Source: a virus (Duplodnaviria > Heunggongvirae > Uroviricota > Caudoviricetes). Taken from it: DNA of 64,000 bases. Below the pieces are notes generated by a model, which searched no databases, was not told the DNA's origin, and saw nothing but the letters and a program-made list of their open reading frames with translations. The translations under genes and the position numbers were made by a program. Location: the IMG/VR virus record IMGVR_UViG_3300025466_001444; one strand, written 5' to 3'. This document shows positions 3,161 to 64,000 of the stretch, in pieces. The first letter of the stretch is position 1. Every line of letters begins with the position of its first letter.

Positions 3161-4387
3161 TTACTTGTTGATACGAATAACTCCATCCTTATCAACCTTG
3201 TTTGCAAACTTTCCAGCATCTTCATTCTTGACGCCCTTAAGCTTCAAACCAGAAACAACTCCCTGATCTTTTTTTCCTTCATGAAGTCCAGCCTGTGCAT
3301 GACGATCAAATGTATTATCATCATTATCGCCACCAACAACAGGGAAACGCTTTCCAGTCTTCACATCTTCAACATGAGTTGGATGAGGTACATTCTTTCC
3401 ACGTTGATAAACCATTGCTACAACATGACCCTTGTGAAGTGCAGCTGCTGCTTCCTTATCATTTGACTCTTCATGGTTGGCACCAGTATGAGAAAGAGAA
3501 AGATGATAATTCTCAGGAAGATTAGGATGACCTACTCTGTTGTGCATTTTAGTATAATCATAAAACTGTGCAGTAGGATGACGCTTGAACAACTGTGGAG
3601 CATGTTTTTCCCATGCAATATCAGAAGTTACATTCAAACGAACGCCGGGCTTATAACCTGCTTTTGTTGCTGCCTTAACATGTCTACCAACTTCATGATC
3701 AAGAATACGAGCAGCATGTTCTGGATGTGCAGCAAGAAAATGTGTACGAAGAACTTTTGATGAAAGAGAATTATCAGGGTACTGTCTATTACCACCAGCT
3801 TCTGTTCCAAGACAATTCTTACGACATTCTTTAGAAGCTCTTGGGCATACGTCAAAATCCTTCAAACCATTAGTAGCATGAGGTGCAAGAGCAAGACCTT
3901 TAGTATGAACACCTTCACCAGTTGACTTCATTGTCTTGCCATTTTCACCTAGAAGTTCAGGACGAGTTTTGAACCCACGATCCTTGGCAAATTGATGCAA
4001 AACAGCATGTGATTCCTTAAGCTTTGCTTTGCTTTGGGCTGGTGTTTCTTTATCCATTTCACCAAAAGCTTTATGGAAACCTGCACCAATCTTCTTATGA
4101 AGATTTTCGTTTTCACCAAGACCTTCTTCCTTAGACTTGTTAATAATAGCACTTGTCTTAGGAAGATTCATTGACTTATGTGCAAGTTCGCCCGGCTTAT
4201 CACCACGATTAATGTCAAAAAGAGTTGCCTCATCTAGATCATTATCTTCATTAAGACCCTTCTTACTTTTTCCAGTGGGATCACATGGACCACTCAAATG
4301 AAAAAGAAAATCATGGAGAACTTTAGGTACACCCGGCAAGTCACTCTCTGACATTGATTCTGTAAGAAACGAACTAAATGATAGCAT
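3161..4387 (-). CDS. hypothetical His/Cys-rich protein (408 aa)
   Basis: Long ORF with many HP/HxxH motifs and conserved Cys. Local GC is noticeably higher than in neighbouring genes. Confidence 0.5.
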   Translation of the reverse strand: MLSFSSFLTESMSESDLPGVPKVLHDFLFHLSGPCDPTGKSKKGLNEDNDLDEATLFDINRGDKPGELAHKSMNLPKTSAIINKSKEEGLGENENLHKKIGAGFHKAFGEMDKETPAQSKAKLKESHAVLHQFAKDRGFKTRPELLGENGKTMKSTGEGVHTKGLALAPHATNGLKDFDVCPRASKECRKNCLGTEAGGNRQYPDNSLSSKVLRTHFLAAHPEHAARILDHEVGRHVKAATKAGYKPGVRLNVTSDIAWEKHAPQLFKRHPTAQFYDYTKMHNRVGHPNLPENYHLSLSHTGANHEESNDKEAAAALHKGHVVAMVYQRGKNVPHPTHVEDVKTGKRFPVVGGDNDDNTFDRHAQAGLHEGKKDQGVVSGLKLKGVKNEDAGKFANKVDKDGVIRINK

Positions 4388-44891: not shown

Positions 44892-45330
44892 GGAGAATAG
44901 TTATATGGTTAAGAAACTTGTGATGTTGGAAGCACTTTCTCAATACCGGATGAGATATGTTTTTGAGGTAGAAGATGATATTGATCATGCGTGTGATGAA
45001 TATATAATGCAAGAAAGTGAAGCTAATTTGAAAGAATTTAGTCAACTTCATCTTGAGCCAACTATCATTTTGTCTCATCGTGAAATTACGAAGGAAGATT
45101 ATCTTCGTATGTTTGATGAAGATAATCATTATCTAAAGTCATGGGATGATGAAAATAAAATGACTTTTGTTAATGTTATTAATTATTCAAAGGATGTTGA
45201 TGAGGTTCCCCAACCTCTTGCGTCATACTATGGAGAAGGAGTAGAAGATGCTCTTTGGAGTATTTTAAAAAATGAATATGGGCCAATAACTGCAGACCAA
45301 CTTGATAAAATTATCAAGGATATGAAATAA
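44866..45330 (+). CDS. hypothetical protein (154 aa)
   Basis: Plus-strand ORF followed by terminators. Confidence 0.5.
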   Translation: MVIPFILSKENSYMVKKLVMLEALSQYRMRYVFEVEDDIDHACDEYIMQESEANLKEFSQLHLEPTIILSHREITKEDYLRMFDEDNHYLKSWDDENKMTFVNVINYSKDVDEVPQPLASYYGEGVEDALWSILKNEYGPITADQLDKIIKDMK

Positions 45331-45358
45331 AAAAAGGGGAGCATCTCTGCTCCCCTTA
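45329..45358 (-). terminator. intrinsic terminator (ggggagcatctctgctcccc) for minus-strand gp23 transcript
   Basis: On the minus strand the hairpin is followed by a 7-nt T-run. Confidence 0.55.
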
Positions 45359-46815: not shown

Positions 46816-47862
46816 TTACTTTTTAATTGTTTTAGAAAGATTAGAAACATACATCTGCATAGAAGAATCCATGTTTGAATTTGACTTGTTCATTTCTGGC
46901 TCTTCAACACTCTCACTAAGAAGACGATCTTCAACAACCTTGATATCGCTCTTTCCAGCAAAATATGTTTCCTTAATGACATTTGCCTTCTTACGGAATT
47001 CATTTGCATCAGAATAACTCACAGCTTCAGTAAGCTTAACAAACTTATCTTTTTGTACTGAAGTCATTCCTTCTGTTAGGCTATCAGAAATTTCTCTGAC
47101 TTCCTTTTCATTGACAAGCTTTGTAAGTTCAATATTATCTGCAGTGGTTTCGTTTACTAGAGTTTCTAGTTCTTCGATACGCATTGCCAATGATTCAACA
47201 ACATCAACCTTGTCTTCTGGAATTTCAACATAATGCTCTTCAAATAGACCCTTCAATCCGTTGATAAAAGATTCGGTTACTTGAGCACGAATATTGTTTT
47301 CGATAGCAAGTCTATTATCAGAAGCCCATTCTGCTACTGCATAATTTAGATATGCGTCAATATTTGACATCATATCTTCCTTAATTTCAATATATGATTC
47401 TTCAAGCTTTTCTTCAAATTCTTCTTCTAGACGAGCGTTTTCGATTCCAACTCTAGTTGAAACAGCAGCTTCAAATAGTGTTCCTACCTTAATACGAAAA
47501 TCTTCAGAAAGATCAGTTGAATCACCAAAAAGAAGATTTAGGTCTTCCTTTACTGACTGCATAGGATCGCCCTTAGCATTACTTGATCTAATAGTAGCCT
47601 TGTTTTTTGCAGACATATCGCCAGTTGCAAGATTTGTATTGTTGTTAAAAATTTCTTCTGGCTCAGGAATTCCCATCTTCTCAATTGCTTGAGAAAGGTC
47701 TTCTTTACCAAGTTGTGATGCATAAGCAACCATCTTTGAAATCAAATCAGAACGTGAAATTCCAGTTGGCTTCATAGCAATTGTTGCTTGATTTGATGCA
47801 GCAGCATCTTCTTCAAGAGTGATTTCTTCTACATCATCAATATTGTTTAGTTCGTCAGACAT
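46816..47862 (-). CDS. 22: prohead scaffold protein gp22-like (acidic coiled coil)
   Basis: Glu-rich coiled-coil protein between gp21 and gp23. Confidence 0.7.
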   Translation of the reverse strand: MSDELNNIDDVEEITLEEDAAASNQATIAMKPTGISRSDLISKMVAYASQLGKEDLSQAIEKMGIPEPEEIFNNNTNLATGDMSAKNKATIRSSNAKGDPMQSVKEDLNLLFGDSTDLSEDFRIKVGTLFEAAVSTRVGIENARLEEEFEEKLEESYIEIKEDMMSNIDAYLNYAVAEWASDNRLAIENNIRAQVTESFINGLKGLFEEHYVEIPEDKVDVVESLAMRIEELETLVNETTADNIELTKLVNEKEVREISDSLTEGMTSVQKDKFVKLTEAVSYSDANEFRKKANVIKETYFAGKSDIKVVEDRLLSESVEEPEMNKSNSNMDSSMQMYVSNLSKTIKK

Positions 47863-47907: not shown

Positions 47908-48573
47908 TTATAAATTTGAAATTAAATGCTGAAATACTCTCAGCTTTGCTTCTTCAAGTTCTTTTTTAGAATGTGTAACTTTGGCAGCTACTTCATTAAT
48001 GTGCTTCTTAGCTGCTTCTACCTTCTGAGCCTTTATAATACCGTTGTCCCAAATCCACTCAACGCCTTCCATGATGCCATTTACAAAAGCATCAGGTGCG
48101 GAAGGATCAGCAACAATATCACCTGCTGTAGCAAGATAAAAATCGTCTTGAACAACATGAACTCCATTTTCTTCTACAATTGATCCCATACCTCTTGTAG
48201 AAACACCAAGTTGAACGCCACTTTCAATAAGATTGCGAGCAATATTTCCCATTGGAGTATTAAGAATCTTAGCTTTTCCCATAAAATTATTGCCTTCTTG
48301 TGTAAGGCTTGTAATGCAATGTGAAACTCTATCAAGATTCATAGAAGGACTATCTGGATGACCTAGTTCGCCCAAAGCTCTATTCTTATTGACATAATTT
48401 TCTACATAACGCTTAACTTCACGAGAAACTGATTCCATTCTATATATACGGTTATTTCTATTTTTTTGTTCAGTTTGAATAAAAGGACCGACAATATAAA
48501 GTGTCTTTTGCCCTTCTCTTCCTTCTTCCGTGATGCATTTTACATCTTCGTTTAATTCTGTGATAAGTTTCAT
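47908..48573 (-). CDS. 21: prohead core protease gp21
   Basis: GELGHPDSP...H...S pattern, 221 aa, in synteny. Confidence 0.8.
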   Translation of the reverse strand: MKLITELNEDVKCITEEGREGQKTLYIVGPFIQTEQKNRNNRIYRMESVSREVKRYVENYVNKNRALGELGHPDSPSMNLDRVSHCITSLTQEGNNFMGKAKILNTPMGNIARNLIESGVQLGVSTRGMGSIVEENGVHVVQDDFYLATAGDIVADPSAPDAFVNGIMEGVEWIWDNGIIKAQKVEAAKKHINEVAAKVTHSKKELEEAKLRVFQHLISNL

Positions 48574-56505: not shown

Positions 56506-56567
56506 TGTTTTCTCCTTTTTATAATAAAAATCACATATTATTTCGTATGATTATTTATAAAAACTCA

Positions 56568-57374
56568 ATTTAGTAAAAATTTTTCAAACTCGTTTTCACT
56601 CATTACTTTATCGTTAAATTCTTCTTCCCTGCCATCATGTATAATACCAAAAGGTGTGAAATCTTCTTCAACTTCTTCTTCAATTCGTCTACGGATATCT
56701 GTATTTGAAACATCTTTAAAATAATTTTGACTTGCCATCCAAGCAAAAAGAACCATGCACATTACCAAATCGTCATGATGTCCTTCTTCTGCATTGTAAG
56801 TATTTCTATCAACAGCATATGTGGACAGTTCATTTATAATATCATAATCATTTAAAATTATTTTATCAGATTCGATAAGAGTTTTTAAGTTAGCGCATCC
56901 TATTCTTTTAGTAACTTGAGTTGTTTTTATACCTAATCTATTTTGATTACCTGATATACCTATTGCTGTGCCTTTTTTACCACTCATTTTTGTCATAACA
57001 ATATTTTCATATTCTAAATCTTGATGTAGAATATTTACTACTTGTGATCCTATATTTATTTCAACCAATATAGCTGCTTCGTTATAATATTTTCCTATAT
57101 TAGAAAGTAATGTTGGTAACATTAATTGTGATATATTTGAATCTTTAAATGTAGCAACGACTTCATATGGAACAGTAGAACAATCGATTACTACGAGTGC
57201 AGATGAATCCATCCCTAAACCTTCGCTAACATCTACTGTTATGGAATAAATATGATCTTTGATTGGATGTTTATATATTTTTACTTCATGAGGATTGTCT
57301 ATTGGTCTCATGTATGCTAATCTAGAAAGAACTGAAGGATGGATAAGAGTGTTAGTAGAACCTAAGAATTCGCA
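56568..57374 (-). CDS. 17: terminase large subunit gp17, C-extein (nuclease domain) portion of fragment 56565..57698
   Basis: Begins with Cys (+1) right after ...SHN, then a RuvC/RNaseH-like nuclease region (VDVSEGLGMDSSALVV...D...HHDD). Confidence 0.8.
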
Positions 57375-57698
57375 ATTATGTGATAAAATATCATTTGCAT
57401 AAAACTGTTCATTTTCTACTCCAACAATATCAAAATATTCAAATTCTCCCTCTTTGTAATCTAGAAAAAATATCTTAGATTTTTCGTTTTTACATATGAT
57501 AATATCGTCGTTCTTAAGATCAATAGATTTCTTCCAACCATCTACAGTCATGATTCGGTGGGTAAGCGAACATTTTAATTGACTGCCGTTTTCTAAATGA
57601 ATTTCAATTTGACCATTTTTTTTAATTTTTTGTACACCTTTAAAAGGTAAATACCCTTCAGATGTTTCTATTAATGTATTATTATTTTTAAAGAACAT
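57375..57698 (-). mobile_element. split intein C-fragment (108 aa, blocks F/G: DIVGVENEQFYANDILSHN) fused upstream of TerL C-extein
   Basis: Own Met start. Ends with HN followed by Cys+1. Confidence 0.8.
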
Positions 57699-58257
57699 TT
57701 CGTTTTCCTGTAATTATATTATATAATTGTGATTCAGTTACGTTATATTCTTTATGAAATTCTTTAGAAAAAACTCTTTCATAAGTAATTTTTCTTCCAT
57801 TTTTTGATATATCACCTACACCATTTAAAGGAATTTTATTATTATATTTTTTCAAAATTAAACAACATTCATGATCAGTAATTTTAACTTTTCCAAATCT
57901 TTTACCTTTTCTGTTGTTTCTAACTTCTTCAGAAAAAGAATATTTTTTCCCTTTATTCCACGGAACTGTTCCTTTTGAAACTCCACCAATATTTGGTCTT
58001 TTCTTTCCTTTTTGTAAATTTGAAGAATAATCTGGACCAAATCCAATTCTTTTAGCAATTAATGCAGCTGCAAACCAATCTTCTTGCTGTAAATGAATAT
58101 CGAAATGTTCTCTTATTGTAACTAATTGTAAATTTTCTATGTTATTATTTTTATGATTACCATCTATATGATGTATTTCATAAGAAAACCCATTTTCATC
58201 AGTTGGTATTTTTCCGTGTGTATTTTCCCAAATTTTTCTATAATGCATATAATTCAA
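57688..58257 (-). CDS. free-standing HNH endonuclease inserted between the two TerL/intein halves
   Basis: EIHHIDGNHKNNNIENLQLVTIREH is an HNH motif. 189 aa. Confidence 0.8.
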   Translation of the reverse strand: MNYMHYRKIWENTHGKIPTDENGFSYEIHHIDGNHKNNNIENLQLVTIREHFDIHLQQEDWFAAALIAKRIGFGPDYSSNLQKGKKRPNIGGVSKGTVPWNKGKKYSFSEEVRNNRKGKRFGKVKITDHECCLILKKYNNKIPLNGVGDISKNGRKITYERVFSKEFHKEYNVTESQLYNIITGKRNVL

Positions 58258-58276
58258 TCCTATAAAATTGCATTCA

Positions 58277-58360
58277 TATTATATTTATAATTTCTTTGAT
58301 TGCAACTTTTTTGGAAATGTTATCTATTAAAATATTAATTTCTGTATCACCGTCTAAACA
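58277..58360 (-). mobile_element. split intein N-fragment (28 aa: CLDGDTEINILIDNISKKVAIKEIINII) at C-terminus of TerL N fragment
   Basis: Cys1 followed by the LDGDTEI Hint block A. Immediately follows extein ...RQEFE and ends in a stop. Confidence 0.8.
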
Positions 58361-59158
58361 TTCAAACTCTTGACGAAATTGATCAACAGAAGTATTTCGA
58401 ATAGTTTCTACTTTCCATGCTTCGTCTCTGCCGGGAACATCTGACCAATGAACATCAACACGGGCATAAGAATTTTCACTATTAACAGAGTCCATCCAAA
58501 TTTTATAAAATAAATTCATACCATTTGGTGTGGAAGTTATTAATAATTTAGAAGTGTTACCAGAAGAAATTGTTGGGAATACTGAAGCAAAAAATGTGTC
58601 TTGAATATTTCTGGGAACGAATGCAAACTCATCAAGATAAATTAGATTATAAGATTGACCACGAATAGCAGATGATGAAGTGGCAGCTGCAAGTATTTTA
58701 GAACCATTTTCCAATTCGATATTTCCTCTATTCCATTGAATAATGCCTTGCTGCATCCATTTGGGCAACCATTCATATGCAAGTTGAATTCGAGAAAGAA
58801 TTTCTTTTGATTGAATTTGTTTATTAGCCAAAACTGCAATATTATAATTTTCATTGAAAAGAATTTTATGAAGCATATACCCAACAACACCTGTTGTTTT
58901 CCCCACCTGACGAGGCATTTTACATATTGTAAAACGGTTGTCATCAAATACTTTAAACATTCTTTTTTGATATTGATAAGGACTAAAAGAAACGAGTCCT
59001 TTATCAATACTCACGATCTTAACATAATTCTCACAAAAATAATTTACATCATTGGCGCACTTTATATATTCTAAAATTTGTTCTTTTGAAAATTCTAGTT
59101 GGACACCTTTACGCTTTAAGTTTATATTACCAAGATATACTTCATTTGTACTATTCAT
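58361..59158 (-). CDS. 17: terminase large subunit gp17, N-extein (ATPase domain) portion of ORF 58274..59158
   Basis: Walker A KMPRQVGKTT and Walker B LIYLDE. Start overlaps the TerS stop as in T4 16/17. Confidence 0.85.
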
Positions 59159-59549: not shown

Positions 59550-60345
59550 TCACAGTTACAATAAATCCATATGTATCTGTCTCTTCTATTTGAGATAATG
59601 GTATAGATAAAGATGGATCAGAAGTTGGCATTCCATTAGCAGTTAGTCCCGGTCTAACATTTATATCAGCAACATCACTATTTGCAGTAAGATTAGGATA
59701 TATTCTAACATCAGAAATTTTAATAAGTTTAGATTCAGTTACAGGACCATAAAAATAACATTTCATAGTAAAATTTAATGTAAATATGAGTGCTCTTCTA
59801 GCAACAAAATCGCTTTCATATGAATCGCTGATGTCCATACCATCCATAATCAATGGAATATCTGTTATATTATCATAATCTGGTAAAAGTCTTGCGCTTA
59901 CAGTCCATTCTGGTGTAAAATAAGGAAGTATTTGCTCTACGATTCTTAAACCGTCTTCCATTGTCTTTACCATAATATCTAATTTAAATCCAAGATTATA
60001 AGGTACTGGATTAAATACTTTTTTATAAGTATTTTTTCCATTTAATTCTCTTTTTGAACCAATCTTGCCTACTGTTTGTAATTTTCTGCTTGGGTCATAA
60101 GTAACACCAGATATCTCAAAAGACATTCTTGGTAATCTTATAGCAGTTACTGCAGATGCATCTGGATTTTCTTCCACACGAGCAAGAAATTTTTCTCTTG
60201 GCCCATAAGCAATAGGAACCTTAAAAGTTTGTTCTAAAACACCAGAATCGCTAACACGTTCTATCATAATATTATTGAAAAGAGTTCCAAATATTACCAC
60301 ATATTTTTTAAAAAGAGAATTGTAAAAAGGAGAGCCACCAATCAT
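59533..60345 (-). CDS. 15: tail sheath stabilizer/tail terminator gp15
   Basis: FYNSLFKKYVVIFGTLFNNIMIER...VPIAYGPREKF matches the T4 gp15 N-terminus. Confidence 0.8.
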   Translation of the reverse strand: MIGGSPFYNSLFKKYVVIFGTLFNNIMIERVSDSGVLEQTFKVPIAYGPREKFLARVEENPDASAVTAIRLPRMSFEISGVTYDPSRKLQTVGKIGSKRELNGKNTYKKVFNPVPYNLGFKLDIMVKTMEDGLRIVEQILPYFTPEWTVSARLLPDYDNITDIPLIMDGMDISDSYESDFVARRALIFTLNFTMKCYFYGPVTESKLIKISDVRIYPNLTANSDVADINVRPGLTANGMPTSDPSLSIPLSQIEETDTYGFIVTVSETYG

Positions 60346-61073
60346 TATGCTCTCCTATCTGATTCACTAAATGGGTCTTTTGCACTGAAATCTAAAAATT
60401 CAATTCCTTGAGATTCAAAATAATCATTTTGTGAATTTGTGTCAATCATATTAAGATCGTATTGTTCTTCTATCAATTCAATTCCATTCTCATCAAATAA
60501 AGGAATACCATTTTCTGTAGTAATAACATAAGGATCAGTAGTTGTTAAAAGAGCATTATACATGTTGTCTATAGTATCAAATCCTGTATTGAATACTTCA
60601 TTAGAATATTCAAACAATTCACATACAACATCATACATTTGTATTGCGCCCATTTGATAAAAAATAGGTGTCTTGTTAACAAATTTAATATGATAAAGAT
60701 GTTGGTTCAACGGAAACCAAATAAGATCACCTTCTAATGGTCTATCTCTTCTTAAGATAGAACCAACTTCATTTTCAAAAATTCTTAAGGCAACAGAAAA
60801 TGTTAATTGATCTCTTACTTCTACACCAAATTTAGAAAGAAATTCTCCATCACCAGCAAATCCGTTGACGTTCTTTAAATACATTTCGACATTTACACCT
60901 TCACCATATTCAGTAACAAATTGTTCTCTGAAAGCATTATCTCTGGTGATAATTGTTCTGGGAACATAATAAGTATTAATACCATAAGCCTTTATAGACT
61001 CTATGACAAGATTCTCTATTAGGTTCTGTTCACTTGCAGAAGTAAAATTGTTAAAATATAATGATGTGGCCAT
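60345..61073 (-). CDS. neck protein (gp14/gp13-like)
   Basis: Position upstream of gp15. 242 aa. Confidence 0.5.
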   Translation of the reverse strand: MATSLYFNNFTSASEQNLIENLVIESIKAYGINTYYVPRTIITRDNAFREQFVTEYGEGVNVEMYLKNVNGFAGDGEFLSKFGVEVRDQLTFSVALRIFENEVGSILRRDRPLEGDLIWFPLNQHLYHIKFVNKTPIFYQMGAIQMYDVVCELFEYSNEVFNTGFDTIDNMYNALLTTTDPYVITTENGIPLFDENGIELIEEQYDLNMIDTNSQNDYFESQGIEFLDFSAKDPFSESDRRA

Positions 61074-61103
61074 TTATAGCTTTCTTTTGTTTTTATATAC
61101 TAT

Positions 61104-62996
61104 TTATAGCTCTTTACTTTTTCTTTTATTTGCTACTCTAAACTGTGCAAGACGTTGTTCTGCATCATTACGAACGAACATTGAAGATTTATCTGTTGAT
61201 GCTTTTAAAGCATGTTCCTCAGTTGCATTGGGATGATTTACTGCTTTTCTTCTTACAACGTCATCTGGATCATTTAATGCTTTAGAAATATGTTCTGCAT
61301 TTGCATTTGGATTAGATATTGCTGTTCTTCTTACAGCCTCATCTGGATCATTTAATGCTTTAGAAATATGTGCAGATGTTGCATTTGGATGAGCTACCGC
61401 TGATCTTTTTATACCATCTTCTTCATTTGGATCATTTAATACTTTAGAAATATGTTCTGCAGTTGCTTTAGGATTTTGAATAGCATGTGATCTGACAAAT
61501 GATTTATCATCATTTAATGCTTTTGTAATATGCTCTGTTGTTGCTTCTGGTCTTCTTACAGCAATTCCTCTTATTCTTGTGTCTACATCATTTAATGCTT
61601 TTGTTATATGTTCTGATGATAATTTAACATGAGGATTTTGAATAGCAGCTTGTCTGATATCAGAATGATTGTGAGCATCCAAAGCTTTATTAATATGATC
61701 TGGTGTTGCATTAGGATTAGATACTGCAAATGCTTTTTCAGGACCACTAGTACCATTTAAAACTTTAGTAATTTCTTTTGCTGGTAATTTTGGATGTTGT
61801 AATGCAGCAATTCTTACATTTCTATCTTCACCCCATTTATTATTTAATACATGGGTAAGATGTTCTGCTGTTGCATTTTTATTTTTTAATGCAGCTTTTC
61901 TTACATAATCATCACCATCATTATGCAATACATGTGTAATATGTTCTGCTGTTGCATTAGGATGTTGAATCGCAGCTGCTCTAATTCCAATATGATCAAT
62001 TCCTAAAGCTTTTGTGATATGCTCTGCCGTTGCATTTGGATGTTGAATAGCAGCAAGTTGTACTTGAGCTTGTTCATCATTTAATCCTTTTGTAATATGT
62101 TCATGTGACACATTACTATTATCAAAAGCTGCGGCTCTGGTATTAGGGTCTTTACTTTTTAATGAAGCATTAGGACTGGCAATCACATCTTTTTGATCAT
62201 CATTATATAATTTTTTATTTTTTCTGTATATTTTATCATCTTTAACAGGAAAATTTGTTTCAGCCCATTTTTTTACTGTATGTCCAAATGCATGATCAGA
62301 AGTTCCATATTGTGATTCTTCTGGTCTGAGAATGGTATCTTTTTTATCTTCCGATTGAAATGGTTTCAATGCTATTCTTGCAAGAGGTTGTTTAGCTTCT
62401 TTGTCATGTTCGTGTACAAGATAAGCAACGTGTGTTCCTTGTTGAACATCATGCTTTAGATAATGACTATTACTACCAGCACCAATACCTTTTTTAGCTC
62501 CTGTTGTACTCATACTCATACATGAACGCCAACCTCTGTCAGTAGACATTCCAGCAACATCATGTGGGTGACGAGAAATAACTACGCCTAGTTTACCAGA
62601 ATTGGAAGCAGCCCTTTTAGGATCGTTGTTAAATGTGCTAACTAATTCTTTTGAAGCACCTGTTGCAGCTAATGCTTTACCAATACGAATTTCTCTGTTA
62701 TACTTAGGCTCAATTGCTTTATTACCTTTATAATCAGTTATCTTATAGCCATGCTTTTCCAGATGCGCTTTAACATCTGGATGAGGTTCTACTGGCTTAT
62801 TGTCATCTGGATGTTCTAGAGGGATATATGTTCTATCTTGTCCTTCTGGAATTGCATCTTTAGAAATTTTCTTAGCCTTTGTGTTTTCACCCCATGAATC
62901 AACAACTTTTTTTTGAGCATCGTTCAATTCTTCGTTTAGAAGGGTATTATAACCTGTAATAGCATTTTCTTTGATAAACTGTTTAAACATTAACAT
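61104..62996 (-). CDS. 630-aa protein with N-terminal globular domain and about 14 tandem about-31-aa HEAT-like/PBS-lyase-like (or LRV) repeats
   Basis: Repeated ...NPNATAEHITKALND.D..VRR.A... units, which are also about-93-bp DNA tandem repeats. Confidence 0.6.
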   Translation of the reverse strand: MLMFKQFIKENAITGYNTLLNEELNDAQKKVVDSWGENTKAKKISKDAIPEGQDRTYIPLEHPDDNKPVEPHPDVKAHLEKHGYKITDYKGNKAIEPKYNREIRIGKALAATGASKELVSTFNNDPKRAASNSGKLGVVISRHPHDVAGMSTDRGWRSCMSMSTTGAKKGIGAGSNSHYLKHDVQQGTHVAYLVHEHDKEAKQPLARIALKPFQSEDKKDTILRPEESQYGTSDHAFGHTVKKWAETNFPVKDDKIYRKNKKLYNDDQKDVIASPNASLKSKDPNTRAAAFDNSNVSHEHITKGLNDEQAQVQLAAIQHPNATAEHITKALGIDHIGIRAAAIQHPNATAEHITHVLHNDGDDYVRKAALKNKNATAEHLTHVLNNKWGEDRNVRIAALQHPKLPAKEITKVLNGTSGPEKAFAVSNPNATPDHINKALDAHNHSDIRQAAIQNPHVKLSSEHITKALNDVDTRIRGIAVRRPEATTEHITKALNDDKSFVRSHAIQNPKATAEHISKVLNDPNEEDGIKRSAVAHPNATSAHISKALNDPDEAVRRTAISNPNANAEHISKALNDPDDVVRRKAVNHPNATEEHALKASTDKSSMFVRNDAEQRLAQFRVANKRKSKEL

Positions 62997-62997
62997 T

Positions 62998-63558
62998 TTA
63001 GTGATCCAACTCCGATAGCTTATGGCGTATAGCTGTAATAATTTTCATATGAGTCTTTGATAAAACTCTTTCCTTCTCTATATAGTTCATTATTCTAAGA
63101 GTTTCTTTTTTATATTTCTCACGCCATGCAGCATTCTTTGCTGACTTGATATCTTGTACATTATCCAATCTATCTGCCAACTTGATGACCAAAGCATAGC
63201 TAGACATTTTTTTCATCTTCTGAGATAAATATTCTGTCTTACCACCAGCTTTTTCAAGATCGTCTTTATCAGTAGTCAACTCTTGTACAAGAGAAGCAAC
63301 TAGACTACCAAACAATTTTTCTAAATCATCTTTAGTAGTATTAGTATCTTCAATAGTATCATGAAGATACGCAGCACTCATAAGAGCATCAATATTATGT
63401 GATTTTTTAAACTGCATAACACTCTTAGCAACTCTTTCAGGATGACGAATATAATCAGAACCATCTGATCTTGTCTGCCCAGCATGGGCTCTAGCAGCAT
63501 ATTTTAATGCTTGTTGCTGATCTTCATCTAATTGTATGAATAAATTAAATGGTAACAT
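62998..63558 (-). CDS. HD-domain (p)ppGpp hydrolase-like (SpoT/Mesh1-type small alarmone hydrolase)
   Basis: YIRHPERVA...AAYLHDTIEDT...LADRLDN motifs. Confidence 0.65.
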   Translation of the reverse strand: MLPFNLFIQLDEDQQQALKYAARAHAGQTRSDGSDYIRHPERVAKSVMQFKKSHNIDALMSAAYLHDTIEDTNTTKDDLEKLFGSLVASLVQELTTDKDDLEKAGGKTEYLSQKMKKMSSYALVIKLADRLDNVQDIKSAKNAAWREKYKKETLRIMNYIEKERVLSKTHMKIITAIRHKLSELDH

Positions 63559-64000
63559 TAAAGTATCTTTCTGTTACATTTATCGTTGTGATATCTAGCA
63601 ATATTGCCCATGTTTCCTTCAAAATCACAATGAACACATTTTATTTTACTACTATTTATTGTTTTAAAATGTGTAGTACTTTTAATTTTTTCTTTGTGTG
63701 TATCTGATAAAGGTCTGCCCGTATTGGCTTCTGTAGCCATTCTTCTAGCTTTTGAATTATCTTTACCTGTATTTTTTCCAATCATAGATACACGACGTTT
63801 TTCACAAACATTTGGATCAGATGATTTGTTATCTCTTGTTGCCAATCCAATAAGATAATTCTCACGAATTTCAGGACGAGCCATAGCTTCTTTGGTACGA
63901 ATAGATATTTTTTCAGATATTGTTTTTACTTTTTCTGGGTATGTTGACCAATGACCAGTAGCTTTAATATTTAAATTATAATATCTAGTTTTTAACTCAT
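63558..64000 (-). CDS. C-terminal part of a homing-endonuclease-like protein (NUMOD3 repeats + Cys/His zinc finger); N-terminus beyond window
   Basis: Frame open to the window end. SEKISIRTKEAMARPEIRE and GRPLSDTHKEKIKST are NUMOD3-like. CVHCDFEGN...HNDKC follows. Confidence 0.5.
   Translation of the reverse strand, partial: ELKTRYYNLNIKATGHWSTYPEKVKTISEKISIRTKEAMARPEIRENYLIGLATRDNKSSDPNVCEKRRVSMIGKNTGKDNSKARRMATEANTGRPLSDTHKEKIKSTTHFKTINSSKIKCVHCDFEGNMGNIARYHNDKCNRKIL

Follow-up and report, generated by a model that had tools for sequence, protein, structure and literature searches.

A T4-like N-terminal leader shared by a small alarmone hydrolase and a LRV/HEAT-repeat protein encoded between the neck genes of a T4-like phage

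The stretch analyzed here (64,000 nucleotides, hereafter the window; IMG/VR record IMGVR_UViG_3300025466_001444, Caudoviricetes) comes from a T4-like myophage (~30% G+C) and ends in its structural module, where every gene is on the minus strand. Two adjacent genes at this end, located between the neck genes gp13 and gp14, encode a single-domain alarmone hydrolase (HD) and a 630-amino acid (aa) protein with a tandem repeat array (REP), which are unrelated to each other but start with the same short leader resembling the T4 internal proteins' capsid targeting sequence. The sequences and the analogy with T4 incline us, by a modest degree, to the reading that both proteins are loaded into the capsid via this leader and injected together with the DNA. 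The shared leader, which had been missed in an earlier note on this DNA, is what makes the locus worth an experiment; if the packaging is wrong, the locus is an ordinary one, consisting of an alarmone hydrolase of a known type and a repeat protein at a hotspot with a homing endonuclease.

The shared N-terminal leader

Three proteins of the window carry the leader:

63523..63558, minus strand: leader of HD, aa 1-12, MLPFNLFIQLDE, with F4, F7 and I8; it ends in a putative L-x-E site for a gp21-type protease
62967..62996, minus strand: leader of REP, aa 1-10, MLMFKQFIKE, matching T4 MKTYQEFIAE/MKTFKEF at positions 4, 7, 8 and 10
3161..4387, minus strand: third leader-bearing protein, 408 aa, isoelectric point (pI) 9.0, starting with MLSFSSFLTE; Pfam GP88 (4e-29), PHROG 1617

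The pattern ML.F..F[IL] was found four times in the six frames of the window (127,996 codons), and three of these occurrences coincided exactly with the starts of REP, HD and the 408-aa open reading frame (ORF), while the chance of such a leader was 2.6e-5 per protein, or ~0.003 per 100 proteins. The leader codons differed among the three genes, indicating that it is conserved as a peptide and not as DNA. All three proteins are basic (pI ~9), and the 408-aa protein is, judged from its sequence, a candidate for a third head-cargo protein. The fourth occurrence belonged to a 38-codon hydrophobic ORF (MLPFFYFISLIILS...; 45231-45344, minus strand) just downstream of gp23, which may be either a chance match or a small membrane peptide.

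In T4, the 10-residue capsid targeting sequence binds the scaffolding core and is removed by the gp21 protease (PMC9026906, PMC8442874, PMC5694885). Residues 4 and 7 direct the targeting and residues 8 and 10 the processing (PMC9026906), the prohead protease cuts after Glu (PMC5694885), and any protein fused to the sequence gets packaged (PMC8442874). The T4 ipI product begins with MKTFKEF and those of ipII and ipIII with MKTYQEFIAE. Compared to these mapped positions, REP matched all four, sharing with IPI, IPII, IPIII and Alt the aromatic residues at 4 and 7, the aliphatic residue at 8 and Glu at 10, while HD matched positions 4, 7 and 8, followed by L-D-E two residues later. Protease-type I/L-x-E sites were present in REP at I8-K9-E10 and L20-N21-E22, and in HD at L10-D11-E12. 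Both components of the corresponding machinery are encoded in the window:

47908..48573, minus strand: gp21-type prohead protease (Pfam Peptidase_S77, 1.9e-32), the enzyme that would remove the leaders
46816..47862, minus strand: gp22-type scaffolding core protein (Pfam T4_CASP, 2.6e-60), the component which the capsid targeting sequence binds in T4

The model and the alignments place the leader outside the folded parts of both proteins. In the AlphaFold model of REP, the predicted local distance difference test score (pLDDT) over aa 1-20 was 53 (aa 1-10) and 45, dropping below 50 for aa 13-21, and the length of the linker behind the leader varied among the homologues from 0 to ~30 aa. The alignment of HD to the human enzyme MESH1 begins only at residue 16, after the leader, which precedes helix 1 of the hydrolase core. 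The HD homologue of Vibrio phage pv27 has no leader and, in comparison with such leaderless small alarmone hydrolases, HD has 12 additional N-terminal residues similar to the T4 capsid targeting sequence.

A relaxed version of the pattern, M..[FY]..[FYLIWM], was present in 72 out of 192 REP-family proteins and in 82 out of the 120 closest HD homologues, against 1.6% in a null based on internal Met residues. The leader was also found on unrelated neighbors of REP in other T4-like contigs. In six of them, a phosphatase-like protein of ~215 aa with the leader MLNFKEYLIE is encoded directly downstream of the REP homologue (L010:5886-6551 and the equivalent loci in L011, L014, L015, L017 and L020); it has a DxDxT motif (FDMDETLF) and matches the PHROG 'polynucleotide kinase' family. 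In the contig of a distant phage (L085:7303-13402), seven consecutive genes have the N-terminus M[KN]xFNxYLE; one of them encodes a protein of 741 aa with an alarmone hydrolase domain at its C-terminus, and another a REP-family protein of 684 aa with 24-aa repeats of the IKNPSE type.

The alarmone hydrolase and the repeat protein

62998..63558, minus strand: HD gene, 186 aa, single domain; matches Pfam HD_4, NCBIfam spoT_relA and PDB MESH1

By its sequence, HD is a single-domain small alarmone hydrolase of the Mesh1/SpoT type. It matched Pfam HD_4 (PF13328) with 1.6e-18 and 67.4 bits (cut-off 27.2) and PF01966 with 34.1 bits (cut-off 22). The best hit among the solved structures was human MESH1 (3nr1; 7.5e-19), accompanied by Drosophila Mesh1 and the Rel/SpoT hydrolase domains. 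The match to a NCBIfam spoT_relA subfamily (6e-26) covered positions 1-142 of the 687-position model, i.e., its N-terminal hydrolase part alone, and with its 186 aa HD is a stand-alone hydrolase lacking the synthetase, TGS and ACT domains. The predicted catalytic residues are R30, H39, H66, D67, E70, D71, D129 and N133. Of these, H39, H66-D67, E70-D71, D129 and N133 aligned with H35, H61-D62, E65-D66, D122 and N126 of MESH1 (the latter numbers were counted from the alignment). Thus, the motifs H, HD, ED and D..N were all aligned and every metal-binding and catalytic residue was kept, with R30 as the substrate residue. Since the catalytic His and Asp are conserved, the assignment as a candidate alarmone hydrolase, proposed in the earlier note from the SpoT/Mesh1-type HD motifs of an ORF with the same borders, stands with an intact active site.

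With one HD_4 domain of ~180 aa and the full set of metal-binding and catalytic residues, HD resembles the metazoan Mesh1/HDDC3, the bacterial small alarmone hydrolases and PaSpo of Salmonella phage SSU5, a phage small alarmone hydrolase which neutralizes toxic alarmone synthetases (PMC9712102). It is, therefore, a kind of phage gene already known: homologues were present in 280 cultured phage records, mainly in non-structural regions. In contrast to other small alarmone hydrolases, HD has in this clade a stable position between the neck genes gp13 and gp14 in a predicted late operon. The candidate substrates are (p)ppGpp, (p)ppApp, tRNA 3'-pyrophosphate or NADPH. In a search for cultured T4-like phages with a leader-bearing hydrolase, Vibrio phage pv27 proved to have a leaderless form, and a match of HD to 'Campylobacter phage A11a' (L077, MG065691, marked UNVERIFIED) was rejected: the gene is a complete spoT of bacterial type with gmk and rpoZ as neighbors, and the record appears to hold bacterial DNA rather than a phage alarmone hydrolase.

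The second gene, directly downstream of HD, encodes a protein with five distinguishable parts, the first of which is the leader listed above:

61104..62996, minus strand: REP gene, 630 aa; leader, linker, alpha/beta domain, 12 LRV/HEAT-like repeats and a basic C-terminal helix
62931..62966, minus strand: linker, aa 11-22, predicted to be disordered; it ends in L-N-E, the second L-x-E site
62127..62930, minus strand: N-terminal alpha/beta domain, aa 23-290, with the conserved motifs SRHPxDVAGMSTxRGWxSCM, GTHVAYL and ARIALKP
61158..62120, minus strand: 12 helix-turn-helix repeat units, aa 293-613, with the consensus ~NPNATAEHITKALNDPDxxVRRxAIx
61107..61157, minus strand: basic C-terminal tail, aa 614-630, pI 11.7, within a long terminal helix (aa 606-629)

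The ORF itself, its borders and the presence of HEAT- or LRV-like tandem repeats behind a separate N-terminal domain were correctly described in the earlier note, the domain comprising ~270 aa (aa 23-290) and the whole part ahead of the repeats ~290 aa, while the description of the array had to be changed. Instead of about 14 near-identical repeats of 31 aa with a DNA period of ~93 base pairs (bp), the array consists of 12 units of 26-29 aa each with a DNA period of 78-81 bp. Their mean identity was only 42% at the protein and 65% at the DNA level (at most 87% for DNA), and no exact DNA repeat was longer than 33 bp. Tandem Repeats Finder recovered the periods of 78 and 81 bp with merely 3.3 and 1.9 copies, respectively, at 80% match. 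REP scored above the Pfam cut-offs for both HEAT (4e-13, 48.7 bits vs. 23.5) and LRV (5e-7, 30.1 bits vs. 21.6). The AlphaFold model of the full-length protein had a pLDDT of 90.4 and included 25 short helices between aa 284 and 600, followed by the long basic C-terminal helix, so that the repeats are predicted to form a LRV/HEAT-like alpha-solenoid. Similarly to LRV (PF01816) and to HEAT and PBS-lyase HEAT-like repeats, the REP units consist of two short helices with a VR..A and NP/HP pattern. Canonical HEAT repeats are 37-47 aa long; in contrast, the REP period of 26-29 aa is LRV-like, and the N-terminal domain joined to the repeats is phage-specific.

The N-terminal ~270 aa of REP had no match in Pfam, PHROGs, NCBIfam, PADLOC or the PDB sequences and, although the domain was modeled with a pLDDT of 91.0, Foldseek against the PDB yielded nothing significant. 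Among the viral structure models, significant similarity was found exclusively to uncharacterized phage proteins, while PcfJ-like proteins recurred below significance. The candidate identities as a GNAT acyltransferase or a PcfJ-like protein were rejected: neither had a sequence match, the scores were below homology level and the acetyl-CoA-binding Q/RxxGxG/A motif of the GNATs was not seen by inspection of the domain. The invariant residues of the domain include W156, S158, C159, G187, H189, D198 and R207; conservation of the polar ones among them (S158, C159, H189, D198 and R207) suggests a catalytic or ligand-binding site.

With a profile built from the N-terminal domain, at least 3,333 representatives of clusters at 50% identity were recruited at E<=1e-3; for 1,640 of them, E was <=1e-30. 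The proteins range from ~350 to 2,000 aa, the C-terminal part is HEAT/LRV wherever it could be classified, and the repeat copy number varies from ~2 to more than 50. REP is, therefore, typical in size for its family with its 630 aa, and a solenoid protein this large is less surprising than had been supposed. The family is very large and hitherto undescribed and, being missing from Pfam, PHROGs, NCBIfam and PADLOC, its N-terminal domain merits a family definition. Homologues are present in many uncultured T4-like phages at varying sites, such as after gp15, after the small terminase gene or between gp23 and uvsY, while in jumbo phages such as Lu11, Dickeya phage JA and Erwinia phages, two or three paralogues are arranged in tandem. 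Every homologue of Lu11 and Atu_ph07 carries the annotation 'hypothetical'. In Pseudomonas phage Lu11 (L069), the three tandem paralogues gp213-gp215 (627, 887 and 899 aa) have an N-terminus of their own, M[RK]IQLA.AAV..., which might be a lineage-specific propeptide.

Head loading or cytoplasmic function

Should the leader act as in T4, it would tie the protein to the gp22 scaffolding core during prohead assembly, and the gp21-type protease would then remove it by cutting after the Glu of the I/L-x-E site. The mature protein would remain in the head alongside the DNA and be injected into the next host cell, similarly to T4 IPI* and Alt. The injected HD could then remove (p)ppGpp or (p)ppApp, or the 3' pyrophosphate added to tRNA by toxic alarmone synthetases, before the expression of any phage gene. 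REP would act as another injected effector, in which the N-terminal domain with its invariant Cys, His and Asp is probably catalytic and the variable-length solenoid probably binds a target. We infer the packaging, cleavage, injection, substrates and targets in this scheme. Concerning the HD target, manipulation of the host stringent response, as suggested in the earlier note, is possible, and countering of toxic alarmone synthetases is an equally good explanation.

The predicted timing of the expression is consistent with such a role:

61101..61108, minus strand: TATAAATA, a late promoter motif of the T4 type, which overlaps with the stop codon of REP and is located just upstream of gp14

The motif had 18 matches in the window vs. 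7.7 expected, 17 of them on the gene strand and mainly located just upstream of structural genes. It was also present in an overlapping contig that extends past the window end (L006:3232), just after gp13 and ahead of the block of endonuclease, HD and REP genes, and in relatives gp13 and the HD gene are directly adjacent. The promoter motifs and the gene adjacency, thus, suggest that HD and REP are transcribed together with the late structural genes. Late synthesis suits a head cargo, while it is an odd timing for an enzyme acting on early host responses. With the T4 internal proteins, HD and REP further share a basic character and a high variability among relatives; late expression is predicted for both, and the phage encodes gp21 and gp22. 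On the other hand, there is no similarity beyond the leader, and the proposed cargo is a nucleotide-signaling enzyme and a 70-kDa solenoid instead of small DNA-associated proteins.

The main alternative is that HD and REP are ordinary accessory proteins which act in the cytoplasm and are never packaged, HD lowering the host (p)ppGpp in favor of cell productivity. In this case, the shared N-terminus would serve folding, stability or translation efficiency, or would represent a lineage-specific habit. We regard it as possible, albeit clearly less probable than head loading. It is in line with the frequency of small alarmone hydrolases in phages, mainly outside the structural regions, and with the existence of leaderless HD homologues; besides, the literature searches found no packaged alarmone hydrolase. 

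Several other points also weigh against head loading. The basis for proposing packaging is a motif of ~10 residues together with the T4 analogy. The HD leader has Leu instead of Glu at position 10 and its protease-site register is shifted by two compared to T4. Furthermore, its L-D-E aligns with L-L-E of human MESH1, which likewise has a L-x-E before helix 1, so that this part may belong to helix 1 of the enzyme. In the REP family, the strict leader register was found in just 37% of the proteins, with some others shifted or truncated. In the short REP homologues, the leader merges into a conserved EEL..QK helix and might be the first helix of the domain, and the jumbo-phage homologues (Lu11) have a different N-terminus. 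REP with its 70 kDa is far larger than the T4 internal proteins, although near Alt in size, and some leader-bearing HD homologues are encoded among replication genes (L072).

Arguments against a purely cytoplasmic function are the same leader on three unrelated proteins of the window at a chance expectation of ~0.003, and its occurrence on seven consecutive genes of L085. The leader is conserved as a peptide and not as nucleotides, and it coincides with the functionally mapped positions of T4 capsid targeting. Moreover, a cytoplasmic hydrolase made only late would come too late for the early host responses.

These observations are the reason for our slight preference for head loading. The broader version of this reading, according to which the clade loads and injects a hydrolase and an effector, disarming the host alarmone signaling or the defense by toxic alarmone synthetases before any phage gene is expressed, with the leader marking a wide and so far unrecognized set of injected enzymes, appears to us somewhat more doubtful than not. 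If true, this set would include the REP family (at least 3,333 clusters) as well as the phosphatase-like proteins whose genes are next to REP. Leaders acting as in T4 would mean that a phage carries a nucleotide-signaling enzyme inside its head, which would explain how a late-transcribed alarmone hydrolase can act at the start of infection and would show that the internal-protein strategy is not limited to the small anti-restriction proteins carried by T-even phages. The short leader is directly searchable and might allow mining of the genomes of uncultured T4-like phages for injected effectors.

The gp13-gp14 junction and its surroundings

In the direction of transcription, the gene cut at the window end is followed by HD, REP, gp14, gp15, the small and the large terminase genes, then by sheath, tube, portal, gp21 protease, gp22 scaffold and gp23. 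The nearest cultured relatives by DNA are cyanophages, with just ~66% identity over short stretches. The genes flanking HD and REP are:

60345..61073, minus strand: gp14 neck protein (head closure); Pfam T4_neck-protein 1e-29, PHROG 'head closure Hc2'; downstream edge of the insertion hotspot
63558..64000, continuing beyond the window end, minus strand: 3' part of a homing endonuclease gene (224 aa in full); PHROG 314 'homing endonuclease' 8e-14

A tblastn search with gp13 of cyanophage S-RIM8 gave no match in the window. Two IMG/VR contigs, L006 and L007/L078 (the latter being IMGVR_UViG_3300006117_000375), are 100% identical to the window over the overlap and extend past position 64000. An intact 246-aa gp13 was present just past the window end in both of them and also in the related contig L079. 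REP had no Pfam or PHROG neck-protein match and no similarity to gp13 or gp14. Placing REP at the gp13 position, as had been proposed from the window alone, is therefore not correct, and its role as a gp13 replacement is ruled out by the real gp13 located upstream.

The arrangement of the junction in the related lineages was as follows:

L081/L071: HD 78% identical to the window; gp13-HD-gp14
L080: HD 84% identical; gp13-HD-gp14
L079/L008: HD 88% identical; gp13-HD-REP-gp14, with REP of 579 aa and 10 repeats
Window: HD 100%; gp13-endonuclease-HD-REP-gp14, with REP of 630 aa and 12 repeats

Judged from these sequences, HD is the stable occupant of the gp13-gp14 junction in this clade, while REP and the endonuclease were inserted later. 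Since close relatives have gp13-HD-gp14 without REP, HD and REP are independent insertions at a hotspot. They were rejected as an obligate functional pair, because HD occurs without REP in close relatives and most REP homologues have no HD neighbor. HD- and REP-family proteins do occur together again in the L085 cluster of leader-bearing genes.

The same gene orders bear on another alternative, in which REP is an external structural part of the virion (neck, collar, capsid decoration or adhesin) assembling with gp13 and gp14. The earlier note had considered a decoration or adhesin role. This role would fit the location of REP between gp13 and gp14 in a predicted late operon, the position of homologues in several other T4-like contigs next to neck, tail-tube-like or baseplate genes and the ability of solenoid repeats to provide extended binding surfaces. 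It fits poorly, however, with the absence of REP in close relatives, L080 and L081 having the same neck genes without it, and with the lack of a stable genome position, as the homologues are found after gp15, after the small terminase gene, between gp23 and uvsY or in the tandem arrays of jumbo phages. Together with the missing similarity to gp13 and gp14, the many invariant polar residues of the N-terminal domain, which are typical of enzymes, and a leader typical of internal proteins, this makes an external role improbable.

That REP is an assembly artefact or a substitute for a missing gp13, for which one could cite the end of contig L007/L078 within the array and the absence of gp13 inside the window, is refuted for practical purposes by the separate contig L006 covering the entire gene with 0 differences over 4,167 bp (100% identity), by the low DNA identity of the repeats (~65%, longest exact repeat 33 bp), by the intact ORF and its confidently modeled product (pLDDT 90.4), by an orthologue with an 81% identical N-terminal domain and thousands of homologues sharing the architecture, and by the 246-aa gp13 that L006, L078 and L079 carry just past the window end.

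The orthologue mentioned is the 579-aa protein with 10 repeats and, compared to the 12 repeats of REP, it demonstrates that the copy number varies among relatives. Of the two concerns raised earlier about the DNA repeats, variation in their number was, thus, substantiated, while a collapse in the assembly is not supported, the repeats being too diverged and without any sign of collapse. Contig L007/L078 stops inside the array at about window position 61925, in a stretch with the 81-bp period. Since L006 spans the array identically and L007/L078 breaks there, the array is real, yet it can break assemblies.

The homing endonuclease gene is complete in L006 (L006:3272-3946), where it is located between gp13 and the HD gene, and the ORF of 108 aa at 63558-63884 of the window is merely the C-terminal part of this 224-aa protein. 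The stop codon of this gene and the start codon of HD overlap (TAATG). The endonuclease was not present in the three closest related lineages (L079, L080 and L081). Its N-terminus (GFVYIWFD...RFYIGS) was judged by eye to be GIY-YIG-like.

Two other features were observed in the surroundings. The large terminase gene is split (56565-59158, minus strand): the N-terminal ORF (58274-59158) stops soon after an intein-like CLDGDTEI junction and is followed by a HNH endonuclease ORF (57688-58257) and then by the C-terminal ORF (56565-57698) in a different frame, which could be either a decayed intein or an insertion of a free-standing endonuclease. Outside the window, two genes upstream of gp13, L006 encodes a 709-aa protein (L006:23-2152) with long collagen-like G-x-x repeats (GSxGxxGS...), probably a fiber or whisker protein.

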